Source: Candidatus Micrarchaeum sp. (GTDB lineage Archaea; Micrarchaeota; Micrarchaeia; Micrarchaeales; Micrarchaeaceae). From it: a DNA stretch of 32,000 nt. Each line of letters starts with the position of its first letter. Position 1 is the stretch's first letter. Both the position numbers and the translations under genes were made by a program. The notes beneath the pieces are model-generated. The model saw nothing but the letters and a program-made list of their open reading frames with translations. It ran no database searches and was not told the origin of the DNA. Location: contig NZ_CP060530.1 in NCBI RefSeq assembly GCF_016806735.1, positions 420,001-452,000 of the forward strand, read 5' to 3'. Shown here in pieces: positions 1-26,645 of the stretch.

Positions 1-426
1 CGTAAACCCGTCGGTCAACGCTTCGGCTTCAAATTCGCTTACTGCTTTTTTGAAGCTGTTATTGTAATAAGCGGTGCTGTTGAAAATAGTGCCGTTGTAC
101 AAAAGGCCATAAAGGACATCGCTTGAATTGGTTATAAAGTTGCCCATCCTTGTTGCAGGATCGCTTTCGAAAGCTATCATTATGCCTATAGATTTGGACA
201 TGCTTGAGTATAAGAATGCGTTCATTCCCGAATCTAAGTTCTGGGCAAAGTTCCCGGAAGCAAGGCTCTGTGCGACGCTGGAAGAAAGGTTGTCGTAGTT
301 TATGTTCAGTACCACATAGGTTATAACCTCTCCGAGCATTAGTATGAATATGACTAGAGTGAGCAGCGTAAGCAATATGCCTCTCTTGCTTTTTGGCTTT
401 CTCGGTATTTTTTTCTTCAGCGCCAT
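1..426 (-). CDS. Pilin-like (class III signal peptide-like) protein, 3' end cut by the window edge; 4th gene of the pilin-like/LamG operon
   Basis: Not in the ORF track because it runs off the window. My translation of the minus strand from ATG 426-424 gives MALKKKIPRKPKSKRGILLTLLTLVIFILMLGEVITYVVLNINYDNLSS..., open to position 1 (142 codons). GGTGAT SD-like motif lies directly upstream (complement of 427-436). It overlaps the stop of the upstream ORF (417-419) by 10 nt. Confidence 0.6.
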   Translation of the reverse strand, partial: MALKKKIPRKPKSKRGILLTLLTLVIFILMLGEVITYVVLNINYDNLSSSVAQSLASGNFAQNLDSGMNAFLYSSMSKSIGIMIAFESDPATRMGNFITNSSDVLYGLLYNGTIFNSTAYYNNSFKKAVSEFEAEALTDGFT

Positions 427-2276
427 ATCACCACACTCAGGTTATCTGTCTGCAATTCATTTCCTCTCCTAAGCGAAATCGGTATAGAAGACTTGCTTAC
501 GGAGTAAGCATTCACAAGGCTAGGCGGTGTGAATGGTATCGATACATAAGAAATATCATATGGTATCGCAGCGTCGCCGTTCCCGCTGTAGTCGTTGGTA
601 TTCCCATCAAGCGGCCACCATCCGACAAGATTGGAGTTTCCAAGTGCCATGCCGCTTATGCCCTGCAAATACAAATCGTAATACTCATTCGGGGCCAAGG
701 TCTTATTATAAATTTCAAGGTTTGTTATAGATCCGTTAAAAGTGCCTGTAATGCTGCCTGGATTTCCGGTAGCTCCTATTATTGTGTTTCCGCTCTCTGC
801 TATTACATTGCCAGTGGCATAAACGTTTTTCAAAACCCCTCCGTCATAGCTTATGTTGGCTATGGAAGCATTTCTTGTGAATCCTATCTGCGACCATGCT
901 CTCGCCTGCACTACCTCTGTGCTGCAATTCCATGTGCTTCCCAAGCTAGTCCCCTGAAGCTGTATACAAATGCTTCCAGATCCATTTATTCCAAGTGCAT
1001 AGCTTCCCTGTTTGTCAACTACTATGCATGTTGGTGTGGTTGCACCGCACGTACCTAATCCTTCGGGGTATATCCATGTAGATACTGTCATGTTCGGATT
1101 TCCTACGTCTAGAAGGCTGTTGTTGTATACCAAGCCGTAGCTTCCAGCTGTTGTATTGAAGAACGAAACGCTTTCGGAGCCGGAATAATTGCCATTTATA
1201 TATATGCCTGCCCTTGGCTGTCCCAATACAGAATCGTTCAGGAGAAACTCTGCATACATGCTGTCGTTGTTGAGGTACAGCTCTCCCAATGTTTCCGCTA
1301 TGCTTTCGTTTATGCTGGCGTTGTAATCTCCTATTGGGAGGTAATCCGTAACCACATAGTTCACGTTGTGCGGTATGCCATCATTTCCATTGCCGCTGTA
1401 ATCGTTGGAATTCTTGTCGAGCGGCCACCAACCTATAAGTTTCGAATTTCCTATGGGCACGCTGTTTATCGCACTCTTGTAAAGTTGGTATATCTTGCTC
1501 GGTGTCAGGGAAGAATTGTAGAGCTGCACGTTGGCTATGTAGCCTGTGAAATTGTATTCACCAAGATTACTGCTCCCTACTCCTCCCCCTGTCCCTAGCG
1601 CAGTACCAATTAGCAGATCTTTCAATACTGCAGTACTGGAGCTTGAAACATAATATGGCGTTTCTATTCCGTTTATAAAAATTGCAATAGCAGAAGAATT
1701 TCCGCGTATTGACACATAGGTCCATTTGCCTACCGGTACCGAGCCACTTCCAGATACTGGGCAATTCGTATACCATCCGTTTACGTATATTCCCGTACCG
1801 TTGTATCCGACTTCGACCGAATGCGTTGTGTTACCCAAATAAACTACGACGCTTGCGTTATTCCCATCCCCTGTCCCGCATCCGCTCACTGGCCTGCCCT
1901 CTTTTGTAGGTTTTATCCAAAAAGACAAGGTAAAACTGTTTTCTCTGACAGGATTAGTCGGTGCCGATATATAGCTTCCGTTGGCCAAGAAGCCCGAATA
2001 GCCAAACGGCTCGCTGCTGCTTGGGAGCTTGTAAGCCTGCAATGGCGGAAGAGCTACTCCGCTCTGCAATATTCCGGAAAGCTGTGTAGAGAGGATGTTG
2101 TGCATTACACTGAGCGCTTCTATCGTCGGCGCTGCTGCAGGGGTTATCGGGCTTGTGAAATGCACATACAAGAGCAGTGAAACCGCAGCGCTAGCTACTA
2201 TGAGGGAGAATACTGCGTCTAATGTGAATATGAACGCCTTGTAATTTTTGCTCTTTTCTTTCCTTTGCATGGTCAT
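417..2276 (-). CDS. Pilin-like N-terminus fused to multiple LamG (concanavalin A-like) domains; probable surface/adhesin protein
   Basis: ORF track gives 417..2306, but 2306 is a TTG. I prefer ATG 2276-2274, which overlaps the upstream stop TGA (2278-2276) as TGATG. N-terminus MTMQRKEKSKNYKAFIFTLDAVFSLIVASAAVSLLLY is a basic stretch plus hydrophobic helix. Repeated module borders GWWPLDKNSNDYSGNGNDG / GWWPLDGNTNDYSGNGDAA and VQLYNSSLTPSKIYQLY / LEIYNKTLAPNEYYDLY are typical of Laminin_G_3 domains. Many N-x-S/T sequons. Confidence 0.75.
   Translation of the reverse strand: MTMQRKEKSKNYKAFIFTLDAVFSLIVASAAVSLLLYVHFTSPITPAAAPTIEALSVMHNILSTQLSGILQSGVALPPLQAYKLPSSSEPFGYSGFLANGSYISAPTNPVRENSFTLSFWIKPTKEGRPVSGCGTGDGNNASVVVYLGNTTHSVEVGYNGTGIYVNGWYTNCPVSGSGSVPVGKWTYVSIRGNSSAIAIFINGIETPYYVSSSSTAVLKDLLIGTALGTGGGVGSSNLGEYNFTGYIANVQLYNSSLTPSKIYQLYKSAINSVPIGNSKLIGWWPLDKNSNDYSGNGNDGIPHNVNYVVTDYLPIGDYNASINESIAETLGELYLNNDSMYAEFLLNDSVLGQPRAGIYINGNYSGSESVSFFNTTAGSYGLVYNNSLLDVGNPNMTVSTWIYPEGLGTCGATTPTCIVVDKQGSYALGINGSGSICIQLQGTSLGSTWNCSTEVVQARAWSQIGFTRNASIANISYDGGVLKNVYATGNVIAESGNTIIGATGNPGSITGTFNGSITNLEIYNKTLAPNEYYDLYLQGISGMALGNSNLVGWWPLDGNTNDYSGNGDAAIPYDISYVSIPFTPPSLVNAYSVSKSSIPISLRRGNELQTDNLSVVIWR
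577..623 (-). repeat. DNA-level repeat copy A, encoding the W-P-L-D-G-N-T-N-D-Y-S-G-N-G LamG module border
   Basis: ccgttcccgctgtagtcgttggtattcccatcaagcggccaccatcc. By manual alignment it is 42/47 identical to 4523-4569 and 38/47 identical to 1386-1432. Confidence 0.7.
1386..1432 (-). repeat. DNA-level repeat copy B of the LamG module border
   Basis: ccattgccgctgtaatcgttggaattcttgtcgagcggccaccaacc; 38/47 identical to copy A by manual alignment. Confidence 0.6.
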
Positions 2277-2845
2277 CAGCTTATTGCTATGGGTTCGTTT
2301 GTCCAAACTATTACCTTCATCAGGACTGGCTCTGTTCCCATGACTGCCCTCGTTTTGTATACATATGAAGTTAGCGCATTGTGCGTTGCAGGATTTTCTC
2401 CTATGGTAATGTTCATATCCCTGCCCGATATGATTATGTAATAATCGTATCCTATTCCCATGACTGGCTTCGTAGCTTCGTAATCCGAAGTGTTGTAATT
2501 GGCCATTGCCATAAGCGCATATATCTTTTGCGCAGATATTTCGCTGCTGTTCGATGACGAGGTTAAGCCTACGCTAAAGTCCTTCCACGTAGAAGAGTTT
2601 GACGTATTTATCAACGCGCTCCAATCTGAAGGCGTGCCAGGCGTAAGCAGCCTTTCAGTAAGGACCTGCGTTTCGAACTGCATCGTCTCCGCGCCACTCC
2701 CATAGCTAAGTGCGAGCTGGTTGTCTATATTGTACCAAGTGTAAGCCAGTATGGTCATCGCCACGGTGAATATCACGATTGCGAATATTATATCAAAGCT
2801 CCAAAATTGGGCTCTGTAATTTTTTGACTTTAAATTCCTATACAA
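2276..2845 (-). CDS. Small pilin-like protein (class III signal peptide-like N-terminus)
   Basis: ORF track, 189 aa. TTG start (complement of caa 2843-2845), 5 nt after the stop of the 929-aa ORF. N-terminus MYRNLKSKNYRAQFWSFDIIFAIVIFTVAMTILAYTW is basic plus a hydrophobic helix. No other domain recognised. Confidence 0.65.
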   Translation of the reverse strand: MYRNLKSKNYRAQFWSFDIIFAIVIFTVAMTILAYTWYNIDNQLALSYGSGAETMQFETQVLTERLLTPGTPSDWSALINTSNSSTWKDFSVGLTSSSNSSEISAQKIYALMAMANYNTSDYEATKPVMGIGYDYYIIISGRDMNITIGENPATHNALTSYVYKTRAVMGTEPVLMKVIVWTNEPIAIS

Positions 2846-2850
2846 CTAAA

Positions 2851-5640
2851 TCATCCTGCTGAAATGTTAAAGCTCTTCTCTACCGGATTGCCGGCAACGT
2901 AAAGCTGCTCTATCTCATACGGTGTGAGGCTCACATTATATATCTGAAGGTTCGTAACCGAACCGTTGAAAAACTCCGTGCCGGTGTTTCCGTCTAGTGC
3001 ATCTCCAATATATCCTGTTTCGGTATAATTGCTAAGGTAATCTCCGCTAGGTACTGTCGCATTTGAGTAATATTTTCCATCCAAATAGAAATCCACTTTT
3101 TCCGTAGTTGAATTGTAGGTTCCAGTTACCATATAAAGCGTATCTGGCATTATTGTTGCTCCTGCGGGTGACACTCCGCTTCCGCTCGTTGGGCATCCTG
3201 GCGGATTGTTAGCATTTGATGTATACCATGCAATGAAGTTTATGTTCGATGGAGGAGACATCATAAATCCCATGGTACAACCGCCCCATCCTACTGGGTA
3301 TTGATTTTGGCTGAAGTATTGCGAGCCTCCTCTGTATTCAAGCCATGCGTTTATGGAATATGGATGATGGCCATTGAGCGTTTCCATTGGTGGTATGGAT
3401 ATTCTACTTGCAGAGCTCGTGCCGTTGAAGCTTGCTATCGGGATGCTGCTGGTGCTAGTAGCACTTACCGAGCGCTGATTAGTATACGTTATAGCATTTG
3501 ACGATACTGGATAATTGTTTGCTGAGTAATCGCTGGGATTGCCGCTCAGCGGGAACCACCCTATGAGCCCAACATTGCTTAACGGAGCCCCATTTATCCC
3601 GTTTTTGTATATCTGCGTTATGTAGCTCTGTTGCAGGGATGTATTGTATATCTGTACATTGCTTATCTTTCCGCTAAAGGCGTACATTCCCGGATACGCT
3701 GCGCCTATATTTATCTTTCCTATTGCCTCTGCGTATGTCCCATTTCCTGGGCTTGTAGCAACTGCCATTCCGTTTATGTATACTGTTATAGTGTTGTTGG
3801 CTCCGTTCCAAACTCCGGTTACCAGATAAGGTGTATTTGCTGTCAGTACACCTCCGCTTGGTTGCGGAGCCCCGCTGATGCTGCTTCCTTCGTTGTTCCA
3901 TCTTGCAACTGCGGCTCCATTTGCCCCGGTTATTCCTATATCGAATGTCTCATGAGTATATGGCCCTCCGGAAACCTCTGCTATGTTCTGCCAATAAGTT
4001 CCGGTTCCTGTGTTATTTATCCATGCAGATATTGTAATGCCTCTTGCATAAGTCTCCGCGGTTGTTGCGTTATCATAGCTGTTGCTCCCGTCAAAGTTTC
4101 CAACCATAAATGCAGTAGATACCAGTTGAAGTGGCTGCCAGTTAGAATTTGTGAAATCTCCCGAATTAAAATAGCCGCTGAAATCGAAGACGCTGCTTCC
4201 ATATCCCTCTTCCAGTGGCCACCACCCTCTAAGGTTAGCAGCAGTTGAAGAGTTGCCGTTGAAAAGGAAAGCCTGTCCAGATATGGAAGTTATTGGAGAA
4301 TTTGATGCCATGAAAAGCGTGGCATTGCCATTCGAATGCGTTATCCCTGCAACATAATTGTCGTTAGGCTGCGTTATGTATTCTGGAGATATCGAATCAA
4401 CTCCTGTATTGGTATCAAAGCCCACCAGAACGTGCGAAGCGTTGTCTCCGTTGGAAAGCGTTGCATGAGCCTCAACTTCTGCAATATTAACATACTTTAT
4501 ATTATAGGGTATTCCGTTGTTTCCGTTCCCGCTGTAGTCATTGGTATTACCGTCAAGCGGATACCATCCTACTACGTTTGCGCTGTCAACAGGGTTTCCG
4601 GCGATCCCCTCATTATAAATGGCGTTTATCTGGTTGGAAGATAATGCAGCATTATAAACTTGCACATTGGTGATAATAACATTGCCTATTGGCTGTGAAC
4701 TTTGGCTGCCTATTACAAAATTTCCTGTTGTGGCTTGGGAAGTACCTCCAGGTCCTCCGCCATAATATTTGCCATTTATATAAAGCGAAACGTCTCCGCT
4801 GCTGGCGTTATAAACTCCAGTCATAAGATAAAAGCTGCTTTTATTGTATGGGAAATTCATCTCTTGATTGCCTCCCCTCACCATCTCTATGGAGCCTCCT
4901 CCATTGCATATATCTCTTATAACCCCGTTTGGATATCCGCCGAAACCTATTACGTGGTAGCTCCAATAGCACGCAGGAGCAGGTTCCTCCTGGCTTTGTA
5001 TGTTTACCCAGGCGGATATAGTAAAGCTGTTAACATCAGGCACAAATGTGATGGTGTTTGACGATGGTACAAATACATAGCTTCCCGGGGCACTGCCGTT
5101 AAGTTCTACTCCTTTTGTAACTCCTTTGTTCTTTACGTATAGCGAATCAGGAAGGAAAGAGGTGCTGGGGGGCAGTTCGTCTATGTATATTTTTCCGTTA
5201 GCGTTCGTTATTTCTATGCTTCCGGTATAGGTAGACACGTTGTAAAGCGAAATCCCTCCGGAGCTTACGACTTTTGTTCCGTTTATTATGAGGTTCCTGG
5301 CTGAGCTGTAAGCTATAGCCTCAGCCTTGGTTATGCCTATGGTTATGTTTGCCTCAACGACTCCGCTTGTTGATATGAAAAGCCTGTAAGGATTCTCGCT
5401 GGTCACTGGAGGTATCGAAACTATTGCAGAATATCCATTGCCGGCAATTATTGCCTGATCCATGTGTATGGCTATATTCTGCGCCGCCAGCTGCAGCGAT
5501 TGGTATTCATCATTTCCCAAAGATGCAGCGCGCTGATTGACAACTAGAGCGAATATGATAACGAATATCAGAAGCACCAAAGAGTATACTATTAAGAATT
5601 CAAGGGCAATCTGCCCCTTCTTCCTGCCATTAAGCGCCAT
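2851..5640 (-). CDS. Giant type IV pilin-like protein with at least three LamG (concanavalin A-like) domains
   Basis: ORF track, 929 aa. N-terminus is MALNGRKKGQIALEFLIVYSLVLLIFVIIFALVV, with a KG|Q cleavage-like site, Glu at +5 and a hydrophobic helix. LamG borders: GWYPLDGNTNDYSGNGNNG, GWWPLEEGYGSSVFDFSG, GWFPLSGNPSDYS. Domain ends: VQVYNAALSSNQINAIY, VQIYNTSLQQSYITQIY, LQIYNVSLTPYEIEQLY. A TATA-like aataaataaata (5661-5672) is centred about 27 nt upstream of the ATG, suggesting a leaderless first gene. Confidence 0.8.
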   Translation of the reverse strand: MALNGRKKGQIALEFLIVYSLVLLIFVIIFALVVNQRAASLGNDEYQSLQLAAQNIAIHMDQAIIAGNGYSAIVSIPPVTSENPYRLFISTSGVVEANITIGITKAEAIAYSSARNLIINGTKVVSSGGISLYNVSTYTGSIEITNANGKIYIDELPPSTSFLPDSLYVKNKGVTKGVELNGSAPGSYVFVPSSNTITFVPDVNSFTISAWVNIQSQEEPAPACYWSYHVIGFGGYPNGVIRDICNGGGSIEMVRGGNQEMNFPYNKSSFYLMTGVYNASSGDVSLYINGKYYGGGPGGTSQATTGNFVIGSQSSQPIGNVIITNVQVYNAALSSNQINAIYNEGIAGNPVDSANVVGWYPLDGNTNDYSGNGNNGIPYNIKYVNIAEVEAHATLSNGDNASHVLVGFDTNTGVDSISPEYITQPNDNYVAGITHSNGNATLFMASNSPITSISGQAFLFNGNSSTAANLRGWWPLEEGYGSSVFDFSGYFNSGDFTNSNWQPLQLVSTAFMVGNFDGSNSYDNATTAETYARGITISAWINNTGTGTYWQNIAEVSGGPYTHETFDIGITGANGAAVARWNNEGSSISGAPQPSGGVLTANTPYLVTGVWNGANNTITVYINGMAVATSPGNGTYAEAIGKINIGAAYPGMYAFSGKISNVQIYNTSLQQSYITQIYKNGINGAPLSNVGLIGWFPLSGNPSDYSANNYPVSSNAITYTNQRSVSATSTSSIPIASFNGTSSASRISIPPMETLNGHHPYSINAWLEYRGGSQYFSQNQYPVGWGGCTMGFMMSPPSNINFIAWYTSNANNPPGCPTSGSGVSPAGATIMPDTLYMVTGTYNSTTEKVDFYLDGKYYSNATVPSGDYLSNYTETGYIGDALDGNTGTEFFNGSVTNLQIYNVSLTPYEIEQLYVAGNPVEKSFNISAG
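4523..4569 (-). repeat. DNA-level repeat copy C of the LamG module border
   Basis: ccgttcccgctgtagtcattggtattaccgtcaagcggataccatcc; 42/47 identical to copy A (577-623), which lies in a different gene. Confidence 0.7.
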
Positions 5641-5691
5641 ATACTGATTATTGAGATAGCAATAAATAAATACATGATTTAAGCAGGTAAA

Positions 5692-6270
5692 TCAGGAGAA
5701 AAGCAGCGCCATGGAAACAAGCGCGAAAAGTATGCCCTCGTTCATGAAAAGCACAGTGCTGATGAACGCTTGGGAGTTGAGGTATGCGCTGCCGGAGTAG
5801 AAAGCCAGGGAATACAATCCAAGGAATCCAAAAAGAGCCGAGACTATATAGAGATACGACAGAGGCTCCCTCTTTAACATTCCTATGTTGCTTTGGCTTA
5901 CCTTTATTGCATAAGCCATTAGAGGCGCTATTATTATGGCAAGGCATGCAAAAGTAGCAAGCTGCGGGTTTATGTAAAGCGCAGCCACGTTTTGGAACGA
6001 CAGGTTAGGCACCATGACTATTATTTCTGCAAAAGCAGCTGCAGCTATGGCATGCTTGTAAATTGCATGGCTCCTCGGATTCCTCATCCTAGCAGTCCTG
6101 TCCCTAGCGCTTTCATAATAAGCCAAAAGCCCGGCGCATCCCAATATTATGAGCAAGCCCACGGCAATGCTGTATATGGTATAATAATAAACCGCATTAA
6201 ATGCGTTGAAGATGAATGCGATTGCCAGTAAAAAAATCGCATAAGCCTCAATCGGCATTCTCCCTGCCAT
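5692..6270 (-). CDS. Polytopic integral membrane protein, function unknown
   Basis: ORF track gives 5692..6291 (TTG). The first ATG at 6270 gives MAGRMPIEAYAIFLLAIAFIF.... About 5-6 hydrophobic helices. It has a single Asp in the whole protein, so it is not an A24/FlaK-type prepilin peptidase. Confidence 0.6.
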   Translation of the reverse strand: MAGRMPIEAYAIFLLAIAFIFNAFNAVYYYTIYSIAVGLLIILGCAGLLAYYESARDRTARMRNPRSHAIYKHAIAAAAFAEIIVMVPNLSFQNVAALYINPQLATFACLAIIIAPLMAYAIKVSQSNIGMLKREPLSYLYIVSALFGFLGLYSLAFYSGSAYLNSQAFISTVLFMNEGILFALVSMALLFS

Positions 6271-6310
6271 AATGATACTTCTTGCATGCAAAACTAGTTA
6301 TTGCTTGCCA

Positions 6311-6344: not shown

Positions 6345-6812
6345 TCACTCTATGCTTACTTCGTTCCCTTTAGTCTCTTCAGACTTTTCGACGTCGATTT
6401 TGAGCGTGCCGTTTTCCATCTTCGCCTTGGCGCTCTTCGGTTTTATCTTCTCCGGCAGCGGTATGCTCCTGTAGTATCCCATCGAGGCCCTCTCCTTGGA
6501 ATAATAGCCGCCCCTATGCTCCTCCTTTTCCTCGTTCTTTTCTGCTCTTACTTCTATGCTGTCTCCCAGTACCTTCAGCTTTATATTCTTCTTGTCGATC
6601 CCAGGCAGGTCTATCTTCACCGTATAGAAGTCCCCGTTGTCTATGACGTCTGCGTCAGGCGTTTTGTAGCTGGAAAAGTAATTGTTCAGCAGCTTGTACG
6701 GTATTTTCGTAGCGTAGTCGAAAAAGTCGTCCATCCTATCCAGTGCTTCGAAGGGCCTGTATACATCAAGCTTCTTTTCCTTTCCGTTTTTTGCCTTTTC
6801 ATCCTTCTTCAT
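6345..6812 (-). CDS. hsp20: Small heat shock protein, Hsp20/alpha-crystallin family
   Basis: ORF track, 155 aa. Alpha-crystallin core: PDADVIDNGDFYTVKIDLPGIDKKNIKLKVLGDSIEVRAEK...YYRSIPLPEKIKPKSAKAKMENGTLKIDV. AAGGTGAG SD lies 5 nt upstream of the ATG. Confidence 0.9.
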   Translation of the reverse strand: MKKDEKAKNGKEKKLDVYRPFEALDRMDDFFDYATKIPYKLLNNYFSSYKTPDADVIDNGDFYTVKIDLPGIDKKNIKLKVLGDSIEVRAEKNEEKEEHRGGYYSKERASMGYYRSIPLPEKIKPKSAKAKMENGTLKIDVEKSEETKGNEVSIE

Positions 6813-6825
6813 TATCTCACCTTTT

Positions 6826-6844
6826 TGTCAAGTTTTATTTGACA
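6826..6844. promoter_or_regulatory. Inverted repeat TGTCAA-N7-TTGACA in the hsp20 / regulator divergent promoter; candidate operator
   Basis: tgtcaa (6826-6831), gttttat, ttgaca (6839-6844): perfect 6-bp arms. It lies between the hsp20 TATA-like element (complement of 6851-6867) and the hsp20 SD, about where transcription should start. Confidence 0.3.
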
Positions 6845-6914
6845 TATCCAATTATATTATAATTAAACCGAAAATTATTTATATCTTTTGTTTCATAATC
6901 CTATCTGCGATTGC

Positions 6915-7370
6915 ATGCGGATAGTTATAAAGACTGTTGAAAGAGCTTCAAACAAGACCCCAACAGGGTTTGTTAAATGGCTGTGCGAGGTTCTGGATTT
7001 GGCAGAGGACAACGAAAGCTCCAAAGCGCTGGACCAGCAGATACTTGAAAAGCTCATAGTTGCGTCAAGGCTTAACACAGGCATAACAAGCTCCGAGATA
7101 GGCAAAAAGGAGGGCATTGCCAGGAGCACTGTAATATACCATCTAAACAGGCTAATAAACACCGGGCTTGTTACGAAAAAAGGTAGAAAGTATTACCTGC
7201 GTGCCATAGACGTGGCATCTACAATCAAGGAGATGGAATACGACATAGACAGGGAGTTTTCAAGAATACACGACGCTGCGCAGGAATTCGACCGCATGCT
7301 TATCGAGCAAATGCGCGAAATGCAATCAAAGAAAAAAATGCAAAAAGGTGAATCTAGGGATGGCAGATGA
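6915..7370 (+). CDS. Winged-helix (ArsR/MarR/TrmB-like) transcriptional regulator, first gene of the grpE-dnaK-dnaJ locus
   Basis: ORF track gives 6888..7370 (TTG). ATG at 6915 fits the TATA-like aaaattatttatatc at 6871-6885. HTH segment: ITSSEIGKKEGIARSTVIYHLNRLINTGLVTKKGRKYYL. Its stop (7368-7370) overlaps the grpE ATG (7360). Confidence 0.75.
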   Translation: MRIVIKTVERASNKTPTGFVKWLCEVLDLAEDNESSKALDQQILEKLIVASRLNTGITSSEIGKKEGIARSTVIYHLNRLINTGLVTKKGRKYYLRAIDVASTIKEMEYDIDREFSRIHDAAQEFDRMLIEQMREMQSKKKMQKGESRDGR

Positions 7371-7929
7371 AAAAAACAGCAATGGAAACGGCAAAATTCC
7401 CGAGAAGAATGGGGATCGTTCGCAAGGCAAAGAGCCGGAAGCTGCAATGAATAATGTAGTGTCAAAATCCGAATACGAAGAGCTCAAGGAAAGGGTGCTT
7501 CGCATGGCCGCCGAATTCGACAACTACAAAAAGCGCTCGGCAGCTGACGTAGCCAATGCGAAGAACGTCGGCAAGGCAGAAATGCTGAAGAGGATGCTTC
7601 CAGTTCTTGACGAATTTGAGCTGGCGATGATTTCCTCTGCAAAAAGCCAGGACGAAAACCTCTCAAAAGGCGTAAAAATGGTCTATGCAAACCTGATGGA
7701 TGCCCTCAAGGCGGAAGGCCTTAGCGAACTCGAGCCCAGCGGCAAATACGACCCATACACAGACGAGATAATAATGGCCAAGGAAACAGACAAGGACCCA
7801 GGTACTGTCCTCGAAGTGCTGAAGAAGGGCTATAAAATGAATGGCATACTGGTAAGGCCTGCTTCGGTAATAATATCAAAAGAGCCAAATGGGGCCCAAA
7901 AGGATACGGGAAACAAAGATGGAAAATGA
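7360..7929 (+). CDS. grpE: Nucleotide exchange factor GrpE
   Basis: ORF track gives 7348..7929 (GTG). The in-frame ATG at 7360 is preceded by AGGTGA (7345-7350). GrpE core: LRMAAEFDNYKKRSAADVANAKNVGKAEMLKRMLPVLDEFELA...GYKMNGILVRPASV. Confidence 0.92.
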   Translation: MADEKNSNGNGKIPEKNGDRSQGKEPEAAMNNVVSKSEYEELKERVLRMAAEFDNYKKRSAADVANAKNVGKAEMLKRMLPVLDEFELAMISSAKSQDENLSKGVKMVYANLMDALKAEGLSELEPSGKYDPYTDEIIMAKETDKDPGTVLEVLKKGYKMNGILVRPASVIISKEPNGAQKDTGNKDGK

Positions 7930-7969
7930 AAATTTGTCTTAAAAACAAAAAACGCTAAAAGGTGTAAAA

Positions 7970-9835
7970 ATGAAAATAATTGGAATAGATTTGGGAACAT
8001 CGAATTCTGCTGCAGCCGTGCTTGAAGGCGGAAGGCCAACCATAGTGCCAAGCAGCGAGGGCGCTTCGCTATACGGCAAGGCATTTCCGAGCTATGTCGC
8101 TTTTACGAAAGATGGGCAGCGCCTAGTGGGAGAGCCGGCAAGAAGGCAGGCTGTTGCGAATCCGGAAGGCACTATAACCGCTTTCAAGAGAAAGATGGGC
8201 AGCGATTACACATACAAGATATATGGAAAAGACTACAAGCCACAAGAGCTTTCGGCCTTGCTGCTGCAGAAGATAAAGAAGGATGCGGAAGCATTCCTCG
8301 GCGAAGAAGTAAAGAAGGCAGTAATAACAGTGCCTGCATACTTCAACGACAACCAGAGGCAGGCAACGAAAGATGCAGGAGCAATAGCCGGACTAGAAGT
8401 TGTGAGGCTTGTCAACGAGCCGACAGCCGCGTGCCTTGCATACGGGCTTGACAAGACTGACAAGGAGATGAAGATTCTAGTATATGACCTCGGAGGCGGA
8501 ACCCTTGACGTGACGATAATGGAATTCGGAAACGGAGTGTTTGAAGTCAAGTCAACTAGCGGTGACACGCAGCTAGGAGGCACGGACATGGATAATGCCA
8601 TAGTAGAATTCCTAAAGTCTGAGGTTAAAAACCAGTCCGGAGTAGACATAAGCAAGGATATGCAGGCAATGCAAAGGCTCAGGGAGGCTGGAGAGAAGGC
8701 AAAGATTGAGCTGTCTACGGTCCTGACTACGGAAGTTAACCTGCCGTTCCTTGCCCAGAAAAACGGGCAGCCCGTAAACTTCACATACCAGTTCACCAGG
8801 GCCAAGCTCGAGAGCCTTGTAGTGCCGATAATAGAGAAATCTACAAAACCTGTAATGCAGGCATTAAAGGATGCAAAGCTCGAGCCAACCGCACTAGACA
8901 AGGTCATACTCGTCGGCGGTCCGACTAGAATGCCAATAGTGCAGAGGTACGTGGAGCAGCTGCTCGGCAAGAAGATAGAGCGGGGAGTGGATCCTATGGA
9001 AGCAGTGGCGCTTGGCGCTGCAATACAAGCTGGCGTCCTCACCGGAGAGGTAAAGGACATACTGCTGCTGGACGTTACGCCGCTCACTTTAAGCATAGAA
9101 ACTTTGGGTGGGGTTGCAACGCCAATAATAGACAGGAACACAACCATACCCGTAAAGAAATCCCAGGTCTTCAGCACGGCCGCAGACTTCCAGACAAGCG
9201 TGGACATACACGTGGTCCAGGGCGAGAGGGCACTAGCCAAGGACAATATAGACCTAGGCAAGTTTACCCTCACTGGCATACCTCCTTCGAGGCGCGGAGT
9301 GCCGCAGATAGAAGTCACGTTCGACATAGACGCCAACGGCATACTGCACGTAACGGCTACCGACAAGGCAACCGGAAAGGCCCAGAGTATGGACATCGTG
9401 GCGCCGCACAAGATGAACAAGGATGACATAGAAAAGAAAATGAACGAAGCGCACCAATACGAGGAGCAGGACAAGAAGCTTAGGGAGCAGATAGAGACGA
9501 AGAACAGCGCAGAATCGCTCGTGTTCACTGCCGAGCACACCCTTGAGGAATTCAAGGATAAGATAAAGGAAGAGCAGAAAGACAAGGTAAACAAAGCCAA
9601 GGCCGCGCTGGAAGACACCCTCAAAACCGACAACTACGACGAAATAAAGGCAAAGACCGAAGACCTGAAGAAGGCCCTTGAAGACATAGGCTCCTCGCTA
9701 TACGGGGCTGCTTCGCAAGGCCAATCTGGAGGGGAAGGGCCTTCAGACGGATCCGCAGGACCGGATGGCCAACAGGGCCAGGACGGGGCCAGCGACGGAA
9801 CCGGGGCAACCGATGCGGATTTCAAGGTGAAATGA
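7970..9835 (+). CDS. dnaK: Hsp70 chaperone DnaK
   Basis: ORF track, 621 aa. Hsp70 signatures: [34 protein letters not shown]. Gly/Asp/Gln-rich acidic C-terminal tail. GGTG SD lies 5 nt upstream of the ATG. Confidence 0.98.
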
Positions 9836-9852
9836 AAAGCGGGCAAAATGTA

Positions 9853-9873
9853 GCATGGGCATTATGCCCATGC
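9853..9873 (+). promoter_or_regulatory. Perfect 21-nt palindrome (hairpin) between dnaK and dnaJ; either a terminator or an operator
   Basis: gcatgggcat t atgcccatgc. Every position from 9853 to 9873 pairs around 9863. It starts 18 nt after the dnaK stop and ends 7 nt before a TATA-like box. Confidence 0.45.
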
Positions 9874-9880
9874 AAAAATG

Positions 9881-9890
9881 TTTATAAATA
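9881..9890 (+). promoter_or_regulatory. TATA-like box for dnaJ
   Basis: tttataaata lies about 45 nt upstream of the dnaJ ATG (9930). This implies dnaJ can be transcribed independently. Confidence 0.4.
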
Positions 9891-9929
9891 AGGTGCACAA
9901 AATAAGAGAAACCCATCGGGTAGTGAGAA

Positions 9930-11063
9930 ATGGCAAAGGATTTTTACGACGTTCTTGGAGTTAAGAAGGGGGCTTCCCTAGACGAGATAAAGCAGGCTTA
10001 CAGGAAGCTCGCATTGCAGTACCATCCGGACAGGAACAAGAGCAAGGAAGCAGAAGAAAAATTCAAGGAGATAAACGAAGCGTATGCGGTGCTGAGCAAT
10101 CCTGAAAAGCGCAAGCAGTATGACGCATACGGTCCAGATCAGTTCAATCAGCGTTTCTCTGAGGAGGACATATTCCGCGGATTTGATTTCCAGAATATAT
10201 TCAGGAATATGGGCTTCGACGTGGGCGACCAAGGATTCTCCGGATTCGGGAACATAGATGACATATTTGACAACTTATTCAACAGGGGCTCGCAATACGG
10301 TCAGGGCACAAGGGGCAACGACATACTCGCAAGGATCAGGCTCTCGATGCTCGAAGCCGTCAACGGCGCTACAAAGACATTAACAATAAAGCACATAGCG
10401 CAGTGCGACAGGTGTGCTGGCACGGGTGCAGAGCCCGGATCAAAAGTGATAACATGCCCCACATGCAACGGCAGGGGGCAAGTTGCAAATGCCAGGAGGA
10501 CTCCATTCGGCGTCATGCAGACTATAACCACGTGTCCGACTTGCGGAGGTTCGGGAAAAGTACCAGAGAAAAAATGCAGGAAGTGCGGCGGCACCGGAAG
10601 AATACAGAAGGATGACAGCGTTGAAGTGGAAATCCCAAAAGGCGTGGATACCGGTACCAGGCTCAGGCTGCGCGGCCTTGGGGACTACGGCACTTCCAGG
10701 AGAGGCGACCTTTACATAGACGTAGAAGTTGAACCAGACCCAAGGTTTAAGCGCAAGGGCGACGACTTAGTGACTACGATACACGTACCCTTCTACACTG
10801 CCATACTTGGAGGCACTATAGAAGCTCCGACGATAGATGGCTCGGAAAGCGTAAAGATAAGCCCAGGCACGCAGAGCGGCGATACTGCTGTGATAAAGGG
10901 CAAGGGAGTACCAAGATTCAACAGGGCCGGGGTTGGAGACGAGATAATACGCATACAGGTTGACCTGCCAAAGAAGATGACGCAAGAGCAGGAAGATCTC
11001 ATAAGAAAATACGCGGAAACAGAGGGCGATTCCTCAAGCAAGAAGAAACGCTTCTGGAAATGA
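9930..11063 (+). CDS. dnaJ: Hsp40 co-chaperone DnaJ (type I)
   Basis: ORF track, 377 aa. J domain with HPD (LQYHPDRN), a G/F-rich linker, and four CxxCxGxG repeats ([32 protein letters not shown]). Confidence 0.97.
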
Positions 11064-11192
11064 AAGCTCTGGCCGTTTCTGCAAATAAATCCGGCAAGCC
11101 ATAAGGCAAAACACGGCAAAGGCTATTTATAAATATTTGAACTGTGCCATATGCAATCCATAGTTATACTATCCATAATGCGTGTGATATTT

Positions 11193-11879
11193 ATGACAGA
11201 AACAACAAAGCCCGATGAGAACAAAAACGACCAGAAAATGTCCGTGCAGGTACAGAGCGTAGCAAGCGTCAATACGCCAAATCCAAATGCAAAGACCCAA
11301 GCAGATAGCGCAAAAGAAAGAAAGGCATTGATAAGTGCAGGAAAGGGGACCATCCAAGCTCTTGTTTATAACAACAGCAAGGAGAACAGGCAGGCTTTTT
11401 CAGATCTGCTCAAGGCAGTATCGGAAACCGACAGCCTCAAGCTAATAAAATCCACAAAGAGGACCATAAAGCATGAATTCAAAAGCGTGTACAAGCAGTT
11501 CTCGAAGGAAAACCCAGCAGAGCGCGCTGAGCACATGAAAAAGCTTTACGATTACACATTCAACATGCTTGAATCGTTGAGGTCCAACAAGGCATTCAGG
11601 GAGCTTAACGATGTAGATACAAAGCTGGCAAAATCAAAAGCGAAGGCCTACAAAAAGATGAACTACCATATAAGCGAGGCAGAAACAGAATTGGAAAATT
11701 CGCTAAAAGAGCTTATGAGGATGGAAAAGCATCTTGACAAGAGGGTCGTCAAGCGCACAAAGAAGCTCGCATCCGCGAAGGCCGAGCTGTCAAACACCGG
11801 AAAAGAAATAAAGGCCCTGAATTTGGAAAAGAAGAAGCTTGAGAAGTACTCGCAACCAAATTCATACCTGAGAAAGTGA
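11193..11879 (+). CDS. Lys-rich coiled-coil protein, function unknown
   Basis: ORF track gives 11151..11879. In-frame ATGs occur at 11151, 11178 and 11193. A TATA-like tatttataaatattt (11124-11138) sits too close to 11151, so I chose 11193 (MTETTKPDENK...), which has gtgat upstream. The start is uncertain. The C-terminal half is heptad-like and K/E-rich. Confidence 0.55.
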   Translation: MTETTKPDENKNDQKMSVQVQSVASVNTPNPNAKTQADSAKERKALISAGKGTIQALVYNNSKENRQAFSDLLKAVSETDSLKLIKSTKRTIKHEFKSVYKQFSKENPAERAEHMKKLYDYTFNMLESLRSNKAFRELNDVDTKLAKSKAKAYKKMNYHISEAETELENSLKELMRMEKHLDKRVVKRTKKLASAKAELSNTGKEIKALNLEKKKLEKYSQPNSYLRK

Positions 11880-11896
11880 ATAACGATCAAAGACTG

Positions 11897-13333
11897 TTAT
11901 TCTTCAGAATAATCCGTGTATATGTTCTTTCTTTTCAGATATTCCAATATGCCGTAAGTGCTTCCTTCGCCAGCTTGCCCGGTCATCCTGAAACCGGTAT
12001 GATAACCCTGCGAAGCTTCCGGGCCAGGCATGTTTATATAAAGCTCGCCAAAGCGCACGCGTTCTGACGCTTCCTGCGCCAGCGCAAAATCCTTTGTAAA
12101 CAGGTATGAAGCCAGGCCATACTTGGAATCGTTTGCATATTTGAAAAGCTCCTCCTTTCCTGATACTTTTATTGCCCCTATTACTGGGCCAAACACTTCT
12201 TCCTGGAAAAGCCCGGATTTCTGATCCAATCCTTCGATTACTGTGGGCTTGAAGTAGTAGCCTTTAGCTCCCGAATCTGCCAGCTTTGGCTTGCTCCCTC
12301 CGCACGCCACAATCCCTCCGTTTCCAACCGACTCATCCACAATCTTTTCCATGCTTTCAAGGGCTGAAGAATTTATTAGCGGTCCCATGCCCGAGCCAGA
12401 AGGCACCCCTACTTTGAGCGCCTTGCTCATTGATACAAACTTTTTTACAAAGCTGTCGTATATCTCTTCATGGACGTAAAGCCTTTCCGCTGCTATGCAC
12501 GATTGGCCAGTGTTCCAGTACTTGGCCCACATCAGGGTTTTAAGCGCTTTTTCAATGTCTGCATCCTTCCAAACCATGAACGGGGCTTTTCCTCCCAATT
12601 CAAGTATAAGCTTGGCCATGTTGGATGACGCCTTTTCCATTATCCTTTGCCCTGTCGCGGTTGAGCCCGTCATTGTAATAAGCGCTACGTCTTTGTGCGA
12701 AACTATATAATCGCCTATTTCGGATCCTTTTCCTGCAACCAAGCTTAGAACCCCTTTCGGCAATCCCGCTTCCTCGAATTTCTTTACTATGAACTCTGCG
12801 CTTCCAGGCGTGTCGCTGCTAGGTTTCAGCACCACAGTATTTCCTGTAAGAAGTGCGGGAGCAAGCTTCCGTGCTACCATGGCAGCAGGAAAGTTCCATG
12901 GCGTTATGGCAACTACGACTCCGTAAGGCTGAAGGTACTGGAATATCTTTCTTGTCCTTGTGGTGCCCTCTATTATGCTCCCATTCAGCTTCCTTGCGAA
13001 TTCTGCATAATACTGCATCTGGTCAATTACGCCGTCTACTTCCTCTTTCGCCTCTTTTGTCAGCTTCCCGTTTTCGTTGTATATTATGCGTTCAAGCTCC
13101 TTCCTGCTTTTGGCTATAAGATCCAATGCCTTGTATATGTATTTGGACCTCTCAACTTCAGTCATCGAGCTCCACTTAGGGAATGCTTCATACGCGCCTC
13201 TTATCGCTTTGTCTACATCATCCTTGGAAGCGCCTTTGAAAGAGTAAAGCCTTTTTCCATTTATTGGCGATAGCTTTTCTATCTTGCTGGGGCTTGTCCC
13301 ATCTATCCATTTGCCACCTATATACATCTTCAT
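11897..13333 (-). CDS. NAD(P)+ aldehyde dehydrogenase (probable glyceraldehyde/glycolaldehyde dehydrogenase, from context)
   Basis: ORF track gives 11897..13342 (GTG). ATG at 13333 (MKMYIGGKWIDG) is preceded by GGGTG. ALDH motifs: ILELGGKAP (catalytic Glu), NTGQSCIAAERLYV (catalytic Cys), EEVFGPV. Confidence 0.9.
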   Translation of the reverse strand: MKMYIGGKWIDGTSPSKIEKLSPINGKRLYSFKGASKDDVDKAIRGAYEAFPKWSSMTEVERSKYIYKALDLIAKSRKELERIIYNENGKLTKEAKEEVDGVIDQMQYYAEFARKLNGSIIEGTTRTRKIFQYLQPYGVVVAITPWNFPAAMVARKLAPALLTGNTVVLKPSSDTPGSAEFIVKKFEEAGLPKGVLSLVAGKGSEIGDYIVSHKDVALITMTGSTATGQRIMEKASSNMAKLILELGGKAPFMVWKDADIEKALKTLMWAKYWNTGQSCIAAERLYVHEEIYDSFVKKFVSMSKALKVGVPSGSGMGPLINSSALESMEKIVDESVGNGGIVACGGSKPKLADSGAKGYYFKPTVIEGLDQKSGLFQEEVFGPVIGAIKVSGKEELFKYANDSKYGLASYLFTKDFALAQEASERVRFGELYINMPGPEASQGYHTGFRMTGQAGEGSTYGILEYLKRKNIYTDYSEE

Positions 13334-13363
13334 CAATAACACCCAAATATGAAGCCCTGTTTG

Positions 13364-14266
13364 TCAGTCAATAAGCCTGGACGCGGATTTGTAAAGATCC
13401 TCGCCATATTTGTCGCTTATGCTTTCAAGGGGAGGAACTGCATTCGTCTCGCGTGAATGCATTATCCTTCTGTAAAACATGTAATTGTAATCTGATGGAA
13501 ACTGAACGTGCGTGAACAAATGCATCAGCACGGTCAGCCTTTCCTGCAGCTCTTTTGCCTTATTCAACCGACCAGAAACATAAGCCTTGTAGACGTCAAA
13601 AGCCAGCCTTGTAAAATTAGTGGTTCCGCAAACCCCGCCGTGTGCACCTATCATAAGCGATGGCAGAAGCAAATCATCCTGACCTTGGAAGACTGCAAAT
13701 TCGTTGCCCATCCCTTCTATGAATCCCGATATGCTCCTGAAATCTCCGCTGCTGTCCTTGACTCCTATTATGTTTTTGTGCCGCTCTGCAAGCTTCTTTG
13801 CCATGCTTAAGGTTATCCAATTGCCAGTGAATTGCGGTATGTTGTAAAGTACTATTCCAGCATCAATCTTATCTGCCACGCTGTCAAAATACCTAAAAAG
13901 CGATTTCTCGTCCATCTTTAAGTAATATGGCGTCACTATTACGAGCGCATCGGCTCCGAATTTAATTGCACTGTGCGCAACTTCCAACGTTTCTTCGACA
14001 GAATTTCTTCCCACTCCTGGAAGCATAAAAAGCTTCGAACTTGCAAATTCCGAGAATTCCTTGATTAGCGATACATGCTGCTCAAAAGACAATAGCGCCC
14101 CACAGCCATTTGAACCTGCAGGAAATATTCCGCTTGCGCCATTTTTCTCCAAAAAATCGACGAGTGCTGCAATGGCTTTTGAATCAAATTTTCCACCCTT
14201 GAACGGGGTTATTGCCGGTGTTATTATTCCCAAGGCCTTTTTCTTTAGCCATTTTTCATAATCCAT
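13364..14266 (-). CDS. kdgA: DapA/N-acetylneuraminate lyase family class I aldolase, probable 2-keto-3-deoxy(-gluconate) aldolase
   Basis: ORF track, 300 aa. GIITPAITPF N-terminus, YNIPQFTG, and IIGVKDSSGD (Schiff-base Lys). As I recall it, this resembles the Sulfolobus KD(P)G aldolase pattern. The substrate is inferred from the neighbouring genes. Confidence 0.8.
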   Translation of the reverse strand: MDYEKWLKKKALGIITPAITPFKGGKFDSKAIAALVDFLEKNGASGIFPAGSNGCGALLSFEQHVSLIKEFSEFASSKLFMLPGVGRNSVEETLEVAHSAIKFGADALVIVTPYYLKMDEKSLFRYFDSVADKIDAGIVLYNIPQFTGNWITLSMAKKLAERHKNIIGVKDSSGDFRSISGFIEGMGNEFAVFQGQDDLLLPSLMIGAHGGVCGTTNFTRLAFDVYKAYVSGRLNKAKELQERLTVLMHLFTHVQFPSDYNYMFYRRIMHSRETNAVPPLESISDKYGEDLYKSASRLID

Positions 14267-14335
14267 TTACTCAGCTATACAATGGCTTTTCCAATTATTA
14301 AAAGTTTTGCAGTTGCAACTGGTAGTGGTGGAAAA

Positions 14336-15562: not shown

Positions 15563-15566
15563 TCAT

Positions 15567-17335: not shown

Positions 17336-18340
17336 TTGAAGGCAATAACACTAATACTTGCATTTGCGATTCTTTTGCATTTAGCCTTGGCTGCGTCTTC
17401 AATACAATATTATCCCGCTGCAAACGAGGCAGGTGCATTTTATAACGGTTCGGTTATAACCTATAATTATACTGGAAGCTATTCCTGCTACCCTCCACTT
17501 AGCTCTACAATTCCGAATGCAACTGCCAACGAAACGGATTACCCATGCTATGCAGGCATTGCTTCTAATTCATCGCAGGCACTTCCGGACTGGATATTGG
17601 TTCCCGCATATGCTGGAATGAGCATATTCGGCGTCAACTCAACCAACGGCATGCCCATCTTCAGAAACTCTACCTTTTACGTCAATTGCGGCGCTGGCAA
17701 CAGCTCGTCAATGTGCCAGCCTGATCCAAAATTTGTATATTCTCCAGATTTTGCAAAGATCGAAAATTTAATCGGAGAGAGCAGCTTTGACGGCCTGCCA
17801 AATGGCGTAATGACATTGCCTGCACACTCGCACCTTATCAACAATACTTTCCACAATGACCCAATACCTTGGTACGTAATAATAGTATACGTTTTTGACC
17901 CCAACATAATGCCAAACGTTACGAACGGAAAATGCACACAGGTTGTACCTTCAAACATCTCCAACCCTACAGGGAATTGCTTAACCTCATTGTCCGCAAT
18001 AAAACGGGCTATGCGGACGAAGGACAACGCCACGACCAATGCCAACATTGGCAACCCCGTATGGGATGCAATGGGCAAGCCAACTGCCGAAGTTTACATA
18101 CCTAACGATACATCGCAATCAGAAGTCGGAAATCCAAACACAAACATAGTAGTCCCATTCGCCGCAAAGAACAATAACTTCTATTTCTCTAGGCTCTCGA
18201 ACAGCACTGTGACAACTACGCAGCAGCAAAAAGCCAAAACGATTGGATTGAATGTTGGTGCGATAGCTGTTGCAGTCATAATTATATTGGCTATATTCGG
18301 GCTGTTCTACCTGCTGCTTTCAAAGCGCAATAGTAAATAA
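17336..18340 (+). CDS. Secreted, C-terminally membrane-anchored glycoprotein (surface protein), function unknown
   Basis: ORF track, 334 aa, TTG start. Signal-peptide-like MKAITLILAFAILLHLALAASS. 14 N-x-S/T sequons and 6 Cys by my manual count. Thr/Gln linker followed by the TM helix IGLNVGAIAVAVIIILAIFGLFYLLL and a basic tail SKRNSK. TATA-like aaaattatataaatt at 17296-17310. Confidence 0.65.
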   Translation: MKAITLILAFAILLHLALAASSIQYYPAANEAGAFYNGSVITYNYTGSYSCYPPLSSTIPNATANETDYPCYAGIASNSSQALPDWILVPAYAGMSIFGVNSTNGMPIFRNSTFYVNCGAGNSSSMCQPDPKFVYSPDFAKIENLIGESSFDGLPNGVMTLPAHSHLINNTFHNDPIPWYVIIVYVFDPNIMPNVTNGKCTQVVPSNISNPTGNCLTSLSAIKRAMRTKDNATTNANIGNPVWDAMGKPTAEVYIPNDTSQSEVGNPNTNIVVPFAAKNNNFYFSRLSNSTVTTTQQQKAKTIGLNVGAIAVAVIIILAIFGLFYLLLSKRNSK

Positions 18341-25631: not shown

Positions 25632-25675
25632 ATTTCACTGCTAAAATTAAATAAGCTTGATATGCCGCAGCGCAT

Positions 25676-26488: not shown

Positions 26489-26645
26489 ATGATATACTCC
26501 TTGCATCGTCAATTATTTATACCCTGCAGGTTTCGATTACAGCATCTGTTCCAATGCAGGCGCAACGCCAGTGCAATACACATGTCATCTGTTGCAGGGC
26601 GCAATACTTAAATATAAAGAGGCACACAATAATATTGGTGGTGCG

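Follow-up and report, generated by a model that had tools for sequence, protein, structure and literature searches.

A pilus locus designated MIA14_0170-0177, in which 0170 encodes an ATPase, 0172 and 0173 encode TadC proteins and 0176 encodes a "secreted component", has been described in Mia14 ('Ca. Mancarchaeum acidiphilum') and assigned to the Methanococci/Thermococci group (PMC5498576). The Mia14 genome also encodes one FlaK-like peptidase (PMC5498576) and an expanded set of LamG-like jellyroll genes, some of which are linked to pilus loci (Golyshina et al. 2017, PMC5498576). In loci of the Methanococci/Thermococci clade, a pair of TadC genes is accompanied by several minor pilins, by small major pilins that stand alone and by large PilY-like adhesins for which a tip location has been proposed (PMC4858521), and in the 2026 classification of Sivabalasarma and Albers a split platform is the hallmark of System 1, which is reported in DPANN. 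Large adhesins encoded in archaeal pilus loci were described both in 2016 and in 2026 (PMC4858521; bioRxiv 10.64898/2026.04.22.720090). In bacteria, Laminin_G_3 (PF13385) is among the most common modules grafted onto pilins (PMC8179133), and the modular pilin PilC of Streptococcus sanguinis carries a concanavalin A (ConA)-like lectin module and is part of a tip complex, the nucleator of which has no Glu5 (PMC9934059). Here we analyze a 32,000-nucleotide (nt) stretch of the genome of Candidatus Micrarchaeum sp. (contig NZ_CP060530.1, positions 420,001 to 452,000; this whole stretch is referred to below as the window) and, in particular, an operon of four genes at its left edge that encode the pilin-like proteins P1 to P4, three of which carry LamG modules.

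The four genes are likely to form an operon for the subunits of a type IV pilus-like system conserved in Micrarchaeota, with LamG modular pilins that probably form an adhesin-bearing tip or priming complex. Pilus-displayed, lectin-like adhesins had been proposed in the first-pass annotation of this DNA, and this interpretation remains the best supported one given the pilin-type N-termini, the LamG modules and the linkage to assembly machinery; the acidophilic consortium archaeon that was suggested as the source is indeed Ca. Micrarchaeum, an ARMAN-2-like member of DPANN.

Operon layout and putative promoter

P1 to P4, in the 5' to 3' order of the operon, are encoded by four tightly packed open reading frames (ORFs) on the minus strand, the fourth of which is cut by the window edge (coordinates here and below are window positions unless an L-numbered locus is named).

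2851..5640, minus strand: P1, 929 amino acids (aa), ATG start, modular pilin-like protein with 3 LamG modules
2276..2845, minus strand: P2, 189 aa, TTG start, small pilin-like protein
417..2276, minus strand: P3, 619 aa from ATG 2276, modular pilin-like protein with 2 LamG modules
1..426, minus strand: P4, first 142 codons of a modular pilin-like protein of 1083-1102 aa, the remainder of which lies off the window
5641..5691: intergenic region of 51 nt upstream of P1, with a TATA-like TTTATTTATT box at 5661-5670

The packing is exactly as initially annotated: P1 and P2 are separated by a 5-nt gap (2846-2850), P2 and P3 overlap in a TGATG stop/start that shares base 2276, and the P3 and P4 genes overlap by 10 nt (417-426). 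The number of giant multi-LamG fusions was originally given as two but is actually three of the four proteins because full-length P4 (1083-1102 aa) is a third giant with three LamG domains.

The TATA-like box that had been noticed upstream of ATG 5640 is present as well. The TTTATTTATT box corresponds to positions -30 to -21 relative to the P1 ATG and has a counterpart in all 10 complete P1 orthologues, in the form of an AT-rich box located ~22-37 nt upstream of the ATG. The 5641..5691 region is thus, as far as can be judged from sequence, likely to be the promoter of the pilin operon, with a 5' leader that is short or absent.

Pilin-type N-termini and predicted folds

Each of the four N-termini comprises a short basic leader, ending with [KR][G/A/S], and then ~20 hydrophobic residues, in agreement with the original description, and this arrangement is conserved in the orthologues. 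A FlaFind-like pattern recognises P1, P3 and P4 but misses P2, for the sole reason that P2 has F at position +2. In the motifs below, the arrow separates positions -1 and +1. The leader of P1 is MALNGRKKG↓QIALEF, with the Glu at +5 that had been pointed out previously, and the motif in the P1 orthologues is [KR][GAS]↓QIA(L/V)EF, where Q+1 and E+5 are found in 10 of the 10 complete orthologues; among 57 homologues, the respective residues, Q10 and E14, are at least 90% conserved. The N-terminus of P2 is ...NYRA↓QFWSFDIIFAIV, with the orthologue motif [KR]x↓QFWSFD; Q+1 and D+6 are present in 37 of 38 orthologues, and residues Q13, F14, W15, S16 and D18 are invariant among 36 homologues, every one of which is annotated as hypothetical. 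P3 starts with ...NYKA↓FIFTLDAVFSLIV (orthologue motif K(G/A)↓FIFT(L/V)D) and has D at +6 in all 40 orthologues. The P4 N-terminus is ...KSKRG↓ILLTLLTLVIF (orthologue motif K(K/R)G↓ILLTLL), without any acidic residue at positions +1 to +10 in 41 of 41 orthologues.

Comparison of the four N-terminal modules using hhalign reveals a clear relationship only between P2 and P3, which are homologous in this region (96.9%, E 1.3e-10). P1 homologues are labelled by the Joint Genome Institute (JGI) as members of the UPF0333 (class III signal) family. The pilin module of P1 matches PF04021, PF23928 (DUF7266) and TadF, in each case below the threshold, and a homologue search with the first 199 residues of P1 as the query returned three fragments.

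5101..5640, minus strand: P1 pilin module (aa 1-180), with a class III-type signal, a predicted alpha-1 helix of ~60 residues and a predicted beta-sandwich head

AlphaFold2 models were built from the orthologue alignments. The P1 model (mean predicted local distance difference test score, pLDDT, of 74.9) consists of a helix at residues 7-66, an all-beta domain at residues 71-180 and, further downstream, beta-rich modules; the P2 model (pLDDT 81.6) consists of a helix at residues 12-66 and a 4-stranded alpha/beta head. According to these models, P1 and P2 would each have an N-terminal helix of 55-60 residues that carries a globular head and, in this respect, would be pilin-like. Together with the conserved class III-type N-termini, this bears out the annotation of the proteins as pilin-like. 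In the Foldseek search with the P1 model, LamG matches dominate.

P2 is the only non-modular subunit of the four and is a candidate for the core or adaptor subunit. The P2 profile retrieves 952 clusters (E <=1e-3) among 1.84 billion representatives, most of them 160-190 aa in size with full-length matches, and the named members of these clusters are "hypothetical [Ca. Micrarchaeota]". Distant members of the P2 family come near Pfam DUF7287, as the P1 head does to DUF7266; we retain both relationships as leads only because they are below threshold, partly transitive and without mention in the literature. By sequence, the P2 family and the P1 head may represent unrecognised archaeal pilin families.

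LamG modules

The repeated Laminin_G_3/ConA-like modules with characteristic boundary motifs that were described in the first reading of the sequence are confirmed by both Pfam and the motif positions. With a Pfam cut-off of 27.6 bits for PF13385, Laminin_G_3 is detected as 3 domains in P1 (E 1.9e-43, 148.6 bits), 2 domains in P3 (E 3.1e-28, 99.3 bits) and 3 domains in full-length P4 (117.9 bits), where the LamG modules follow a 380-aa N-terminal region without a family match. No other Pfam domain is above the threshold in P1 and P3.

4606..5088, minus strand: P1 LamG module 1, ~aa 185-345 (approximate), ending with NVQVYN and followed by the WYPLDGNTNDYSGNGNNG linker at aa 359
3601..4161, minus strand: P1 LamG module 2, ~aa 494-680, best Pfam stretch 518-674
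2893..3507, minus strand: P1 LamG module 3, ~aa 712-916, matching Laminin_G_3 and, at 839-918, Pentaxin
aa 99-262 and ~400-531 of P3: two LamG modules, delineated from Pfam and motif positions

The linkers W(W/Y/F)PLxGNxNDYSGNG and the (V/L)Q(I/V/L)YN motifs are located at the module boundaries and are visible also at the DNA level, as a 98-nt repeat with 69-72% identity.

The Foldseek neighbours of the P1 model include neurexin/laminin LG arrays, pentraxins, receptor-binding domains of clostridial toxins and carbohydrate-binding proteins, with E down to 6e-13 for the LamG part and template modelling (TM) scores of ~0.7 (target-normalised) for single-domain pentraxins. The structural neighbours of the LamG modules are binding modules rather than enzymes. 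Weak NCBIfam matches to TafC are also detected in the LamG regions of P1, P3 and P4 (28-31 bits against a cut-off of 410). Pfam searches of P1-P4 yielded no S-layer family, even at E <=1, and no glycosidase family, but only lectin-type matches to Laminin_G_3, pentaxin and sialidase-N. The LamG modules probably act as lectin-like adhesins.

The claim that the LamG proteins are densely studded with N-x-S/T sequons applies to P3 (22 observed, 10.5 expected) and to full-length P4 (38 and 20), that is, approximately 2-fold over the expectation, but not to P1, in which the sequons are barely enriched (21 and 17.3).

Assembly genes adjacent to the operon

The operon had been thought to have no assembly machinery nearby. 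This is correct for the window itself, which contains no T2SSE, T2SSF or Peptidase_A24 gene, but not for the adjacent region. An identical 929-aa P1 is encoded on 13 public contigs, one of which belongs to the assembly GCA_001896515.1 (Ca. Micrarchaeum sp. AZ1). Past P4, in the convergent orientation, lie a pair of T2SSF genes (products of 336 aa and 340-345 aa), a gene for a 209-aa protein without a family match and a gene for a 544-aa T2SSE ATPase. This machinery operon begins, with a platform gene, ~3.06 kb to the left of window position 1, as calculated from the correspondence of window position p to position 15641-p of locus L003. Thus, the apparent lack of machinery is an artefact of the window edge, given that the ATPase/platform operon adjoins P4 on contigs with identical P1.

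One of the two T2SSF proteins matches residues 34-226 of UpsF (its N-terminal half) and the other matches residues 264-465 (its C-terminal half), which indicates that the platform is split into TadB/TadC-like halves because UpsF is a platform encoded by a single gene. The nearest solved relatives of the ATPase are, in this order, the archaeal (A. fulgidus) GspE (2OAP), FlaI and CpaF. Its NCBIfam matches to FlaI (246 bits) and TadA (174 bits) are both below the respective cut-offs, as is the match to BasE (124.5 bits against a cut-off of 1000), and there is a weak match to PilB3_C. By sequence similarity, the ATPase appears to be of the FlaI/CpaF type.

Several additional genes are found next to the ATPase. 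A coiled-coil protein of ~430 aa is encoded directly upstream of it on the same strand (L011:8380-9690) and has an equivalent in 77 loci; it shows only weak SMC/Rad50-like matches and probably represents a conserved part of the machinery on the cytoplasmic side. In ~35 loci, the coiled-coil gene is itself closely preceded, again on the same strand, by a gene for a multi-pass membrane protein (231 aa, L011:7581-8276) with HELMH and NxxPxxxLDG motifs (Peptidase_M50). This protein was considered as a candidate for the prepilin peptidase and rejected, being M50/site-2-protease-like and not A24.

Conservation across Micrarchaeota

A scan of species-representative genomes with the ATPase yielded 80 loci, nearly all of them labelled Micrarchaeota, with 63-99% identity; ORFs were called in these loci and searched with the window proteins, and synteny was counted in the 51 loci in which the sequence continues for 9.5 kb or more downstream of the ATPase. 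The recurrent gene order is ATPase, 209-aa gene, T2SSF, T2SSF and then, convergently, P4-P3-P2-P1. Convergent LamG or pilin-like genes are present in 46 of the 51 informative loci (at least four such genes in 35), and a P2 orthologue is present in 39, so the operon is not orphaned from the machinery as originally supposed. The LamG proteins diverge far faster than either P2 or the machinery proteins.

Locus L078 lacks the LamG operon; a 190-aa ORF located there beside the platform genes (L078:5029-5601) begins with ...KIQSAMEYLITYGWAILII, a textbook QxSxEYL class III motif, and therefore the subunit sets differ between lineages. The Micrarchaeota locus, with 66-98% ATPase identity, is also found in entries labelled Methanothrix sp., Candidatus Marsarchaeota or Candidatus Acidiferrales bacterium (L009, L010, L022 and L040), which are likely to be binning or labelling errors in public metagenome-assembled genomes.

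Mosaic structure of P4

The full-length P4 genes were compared in one strain pair (L001:15215-18466 and L003:15215-18523). From the genes upstream of the operon to a point 1.1 kb into P4, with P1, P2 and P3 included, the two strains are 99.4% identical at the DNA level; nucleotide similarity is lost across LamG modules 1 and 2 of P4 and returns, at 86%, over the machinery genes. In the P4 proteins, residues 1-372 are ~97% identical, LamG1 and LamG2 only ~25%, the linker between these two modules is identical, and the rest of the protein is ~88% identical. Divergence of LamG1 and LamG2 around an identical linker, with conserved flanks, suggests exchange of individual LamG modules as cassettes, that is, replacement at the conserved linkers, as far as these two sequences reveal.

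Micrarchaeota are obligate episymbionts with reduced genomes. It is conceivable, although we advance this idea only tentatively, that the three multi-LamG pilins and the one small pilin form a dedicated type IV filament tip that functions as a host-recognition device, with the LamG cassettes recombining at the linkers and so retuning its specificity. If so, the host or glycan specificity of Micrarchaeota would be diversified in the same manner as that of phage receptor-binding proteins.

Proposed system and alternative interpretations

In the system that we propose, the short leaders of P1-P4 would be removed by a prepilin peptidase encoded elsewhere, and the ATPase and platform would extract the hydrophobic helices from the membrane, upon which these helices would bundle. 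P1-P4 might then form a tip or priming complex, by analogy with the bacterial GspHIJK and PilVWX-FimU complexes and with S. sanguinis PilABC, in which P4, having no acidic residue near its N-terminus, would occupy the top position and so mirror GspK and S. sanguinis PilA. The eight LamG modules would face outward as lectin-like adhesins, with a glycan-coated, wall-less Thermoplasmatales host or the biofilm matrix as a plausible target. The shaft of the filament, if a long one exists, would be built of P2 or of a pilin encoded elsewhere; P2 is the shaft candidate in the locus because it is the only pilin-like protein of conventional size there.

Several observations weigh against this proposal. 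Neither the window nor the 10-kb region that precedes the ATPase gene in L011 was found to contain a prepilin peptidase gene, and a search for a small major pilin in the window and all 86 loci recovered only P2 orthologues and unrelated ORFs. Likewise, an EppA peptidase and major pilins of ~70 aa were detected neither in the window nor in the upstream flank of L011, nor among small class III ORFs of the 86 loci; both may have their genes elsewhere in the genome. The Pfam Class_IIIsignal model (PF04021) scores 12-13.4 bits, against a cut-off of 23.7, in P1 and one orthologue only. In 13 of the 38 P2 orthologues and 5 of the 40 P3 orthologues, position -1 is occupied by M, L or I in place of G, A or S, which is atypical of prepilin peptidase substrates, and some P2 homologues seem to begin right at MQFWSFD. 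Foldseek comparison of the P2 model to the PDB revealed no pilin and no match with E <1e-3, the best matches being to the ribosomal protein uS3 (E 5e-3, TM ~0.25); the P2 profile did not match any PDB sequence either. Moreover, both the tip location and the adhesin role are features that we infer from analogy, and the literature searched contains no report of pili in cultured Micrarchaeum.

The lack of reported pili and of a major-pilin gene in the locus also fits a bindosome-like or pseudopilus display, in which the class III signals would insert the LamG proteins into a short envelope-spanning stub or surface complex, without a long pilus, for the capture of glycans or nutrients, in the manner of the Sulfolobus bindosome and of the "functionalised TFF machineries" (TFF, type IV filament) proposed in 2026. 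We consider this possibility, the main alternative, unlikely but worth keeping in sight. All subunits except P2 are bulky binding proteins, the pseudoperiplasm is just 20-25 nm wide, a distance that the LamG chain is estimated to be able to span, and binding proteins with class III signals occur widely among archaea (bioRxiv 10.64898/2026.04.22.720090). BasE is likewise among the matches of the ATPase, at 124 bits, but this score is far under the cut-off and under the score for FlaI. Furthermore, LamG arrays are adhesin-type modules and not the substrate-binding proteins of ATP-binding cassette (ABC) transporters, none of the domains of which were found in the four proteins; no ABC transporter adjoins the operon; and a fixed set of four subunits, one of them without an acidic residue, resembles tip or priming complexes. 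The acidic residue retained at +5 or +6 in P1, P2 and P3, as in polymerising subunits, could instead be taken to indicate that P1-P4 copolymerise along a thick, lectin-decorated fibre, with the LamG giants as shaft subunits. The authors who described modular pilins do allow for a location in the filament body provided that the linkers are flexible (PMC8179133), but subunits of 600-1100 aa are sterically bulky, bacterial modular pilins, as modelled, fit at the tip only (PMC9934059), and the fast divergence of the LamG proteins is typical of exposed, low-copy adhesins, which makes this arrangement improbable.

The subthreshold Class_IIIsignal score, the non-canonical residues at -1 in some orthologues and the lack of a structural match between P2 and solved pilins would all be expected if the proteins were ordinary LamG surface proteins, inserted via Sec with a signal anchor (type II membrane proteins), whose resemblance to pilins and adjacency to pilus genes were coincidental. 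We regard such a coincidence as highly improbable in view of the conserved linkage to the ATPase and platform genes (found in 46 of 51 loci and at ATPase identities as low as 63%), the invariant charged-then-hydrophobic N-terminal motifs including Q+1/E+5, the predicted helices of 55-60 residues that far exceed the length of a membrane anchor, and the placement of P1 homologues in UPF0333 by JGI. Given that ConA-like folds are known in glucanases and that the richness in sequons is like that of envelope proteins, P1-P4 might also be thought of as S-layer or envelope scaffold proteins or as secreted glycoside hydrolases, but the four proteins match no S-layer or glycosidase family, and their Foldseek neighbours are receptor-binding modules. 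In addition, the S-layer protein of Micrarchaeum is encoded by a separate gene and contains the S-layer domain PF05123 (bioRxiv 10.1101/2021.04.28.441871), so we give this possibility hardly any credence. For the same reasons, namely a separate S-layer protein and the absence of an S-layer family match in P1-P4, the pilin-anchored surface layer that the first-pass annotation offered as an alternative is unlikely.

With the pilus-like system as the preferred interpretation, the false puzzle of the missing machinery is removed as the machinery is adjacent, and the locus becomes a concrete, phylum-wide candidate for the means by which Micrarchaeota recognise and hold their wall-less Thermoplasmatales hosts. 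The candidate machine is of the pilus type, with subunits that bear eight lectin-like modules, and the locus supplies precise molecular targets in the existing Micrarchaeum/Scheffleriplasma co-culture.

Neighbouring genes

A gene for a membrane protein ends 51 nt upstream of the pilin operon.

5692-6291, minus strand: multi-pass membrane protein, 192-199 aa, no family match

Homologues of this protein were detected only in the closest strains (L001-L006), and because of this restricted distribution, it is probably not a core component of the system. The next region (6345-17276) represents a housekeeping context and consists of hsp20, a helix-turn-helix (HTH) regulator, grpE-dnaK-dnaJ and genes of the non-phosphorylative Entner-Doudoroff type, namely an aldehyde dehydrogenase, a DHDPS-family aldolase, an MR_MLE dehydratase and an ILVD_EDD dehydratase; this context agrees with that reported for Mia14. 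The dnaK and Entner-Doudoroff genes at first suggested that the DNA came from Thermoplasmatales, an origin that was rejected since nearly all of the 80 related loci belong to Micrarchaeota and one contig is that of Ca. Micrarchaeum sp. AZ1. Further downstream, the plus strand carries a 334-aa ORF (17336-18340, TTG start) whose N-terminus, LKA↓ITLILAFAILL, resembles a class III signal and which yielded no significant family match; its product could be simply a signal-anchored membrane protein. Finally, at 24024-26512 on the minus strand, a HerA/DUF87-type ATPase (535 aa) adjoins a 278-aa protein with an InlB B-repeat (Flg_new_2) domain, possibly a second surface-related gene pair.

Comparison with known systems

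The Mia14 pilus locus has the same gene order as the locus described here, and orthology between the two is deduced from gene order only; in contrast to the present analysis, the Mia14 paper does not list LamG proteins as pilins and does not describe class III N-termini. The assignment of the ATPase to clade 1 (arCOG01819) is taken from the statement in the Mia14 paper, and its nearest solved relative in our searches is A. fulgidus GspE. The resemblance to System 1/clade 1, as exemplified by the Epd pilus of Methanococcus maripaludis, includes a platform encoded by two TadC-like genes, multiple minor pilins with class III signals, large adhesin-like proteins in the locus that are proposed to reside at the tip, and Q+1 in the pilins (here, P1 and P2). 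Unlike that system, the loci examined here were found to contain no EppA, FleN/MinD ATPase or ~70-aa major pilin, and Laminin_G_3 is fused directly to the pilin modules whereas the clade 1 loci encode DUF2341 proteins. The pilus of Cuniculiplasma divulgatum (CdiP; Gaines et al. 2025, PMC12448462), a member of the lineage that hosts Micrarchaeota, comes from the same acidic habitat, has a platform split into two genes and is reported to carry terminal hooks. It differs in being Aap-like, with two ATPases and with small pilins encoded ~500 kb away, and LamG fusions are not described for it.

Outside the type IV systems, TafC, the tip adhesin of haloarchaeal Tat-fimbriae (Tat, twin-arginine translocation; PMC11821415), similarly combines an archaeal N-terminal domain resembling a filament subunit with a laminin G-like domain and is modelled at the tip, but it is exported via Tat and assembled by donor-strand exchange rather than by type IV machinery. 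Like P1-P4, S. sanguinis PilABC are co-encoded and comprise a pilin module joined to a ConA-like lectin module (PilC), a small partner pilin and a subunit without an acid at +5, and a tip-located adhesive complex has been proposed in both cases. The differences are that the S. sanguinis proteins have the bacterial N-terminal motif IPR012902 as opposed to the archaeal class III signal, that the Micrarchaeum proteins carry 2-3 LamG modules each, with three such proteins per operon, and that glycan binding and tip location are demonstrated or modelled for PilC, whereas for P1-P4 we infer them.

The first-pass annotation considered fusions of pilin N-termini to LamG arrays to be poorly characterised in archaea. 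This is fair with respect to experiment; however, the link between LamG genes and a pilus locus in a Micrarchaeon was published in 2017 (PMC5498576). What appears to be undescribed in the searchable literature is that the LamG giants themselves bear pilin N-termini and that the four-gene set is conserved across Micrarchaeota. P1, P3 and P4 have the modular-pilin architecture as defined by Raynaud and Pelicic, an N-terminal pilin module followed by a module that is not specific to pili. Given that pilin-LamG fusions are already known in bacteria, the locus is a further, archaeal instance of a known design and extends to archaea the "modular pilin" idea that was established in bacteria.

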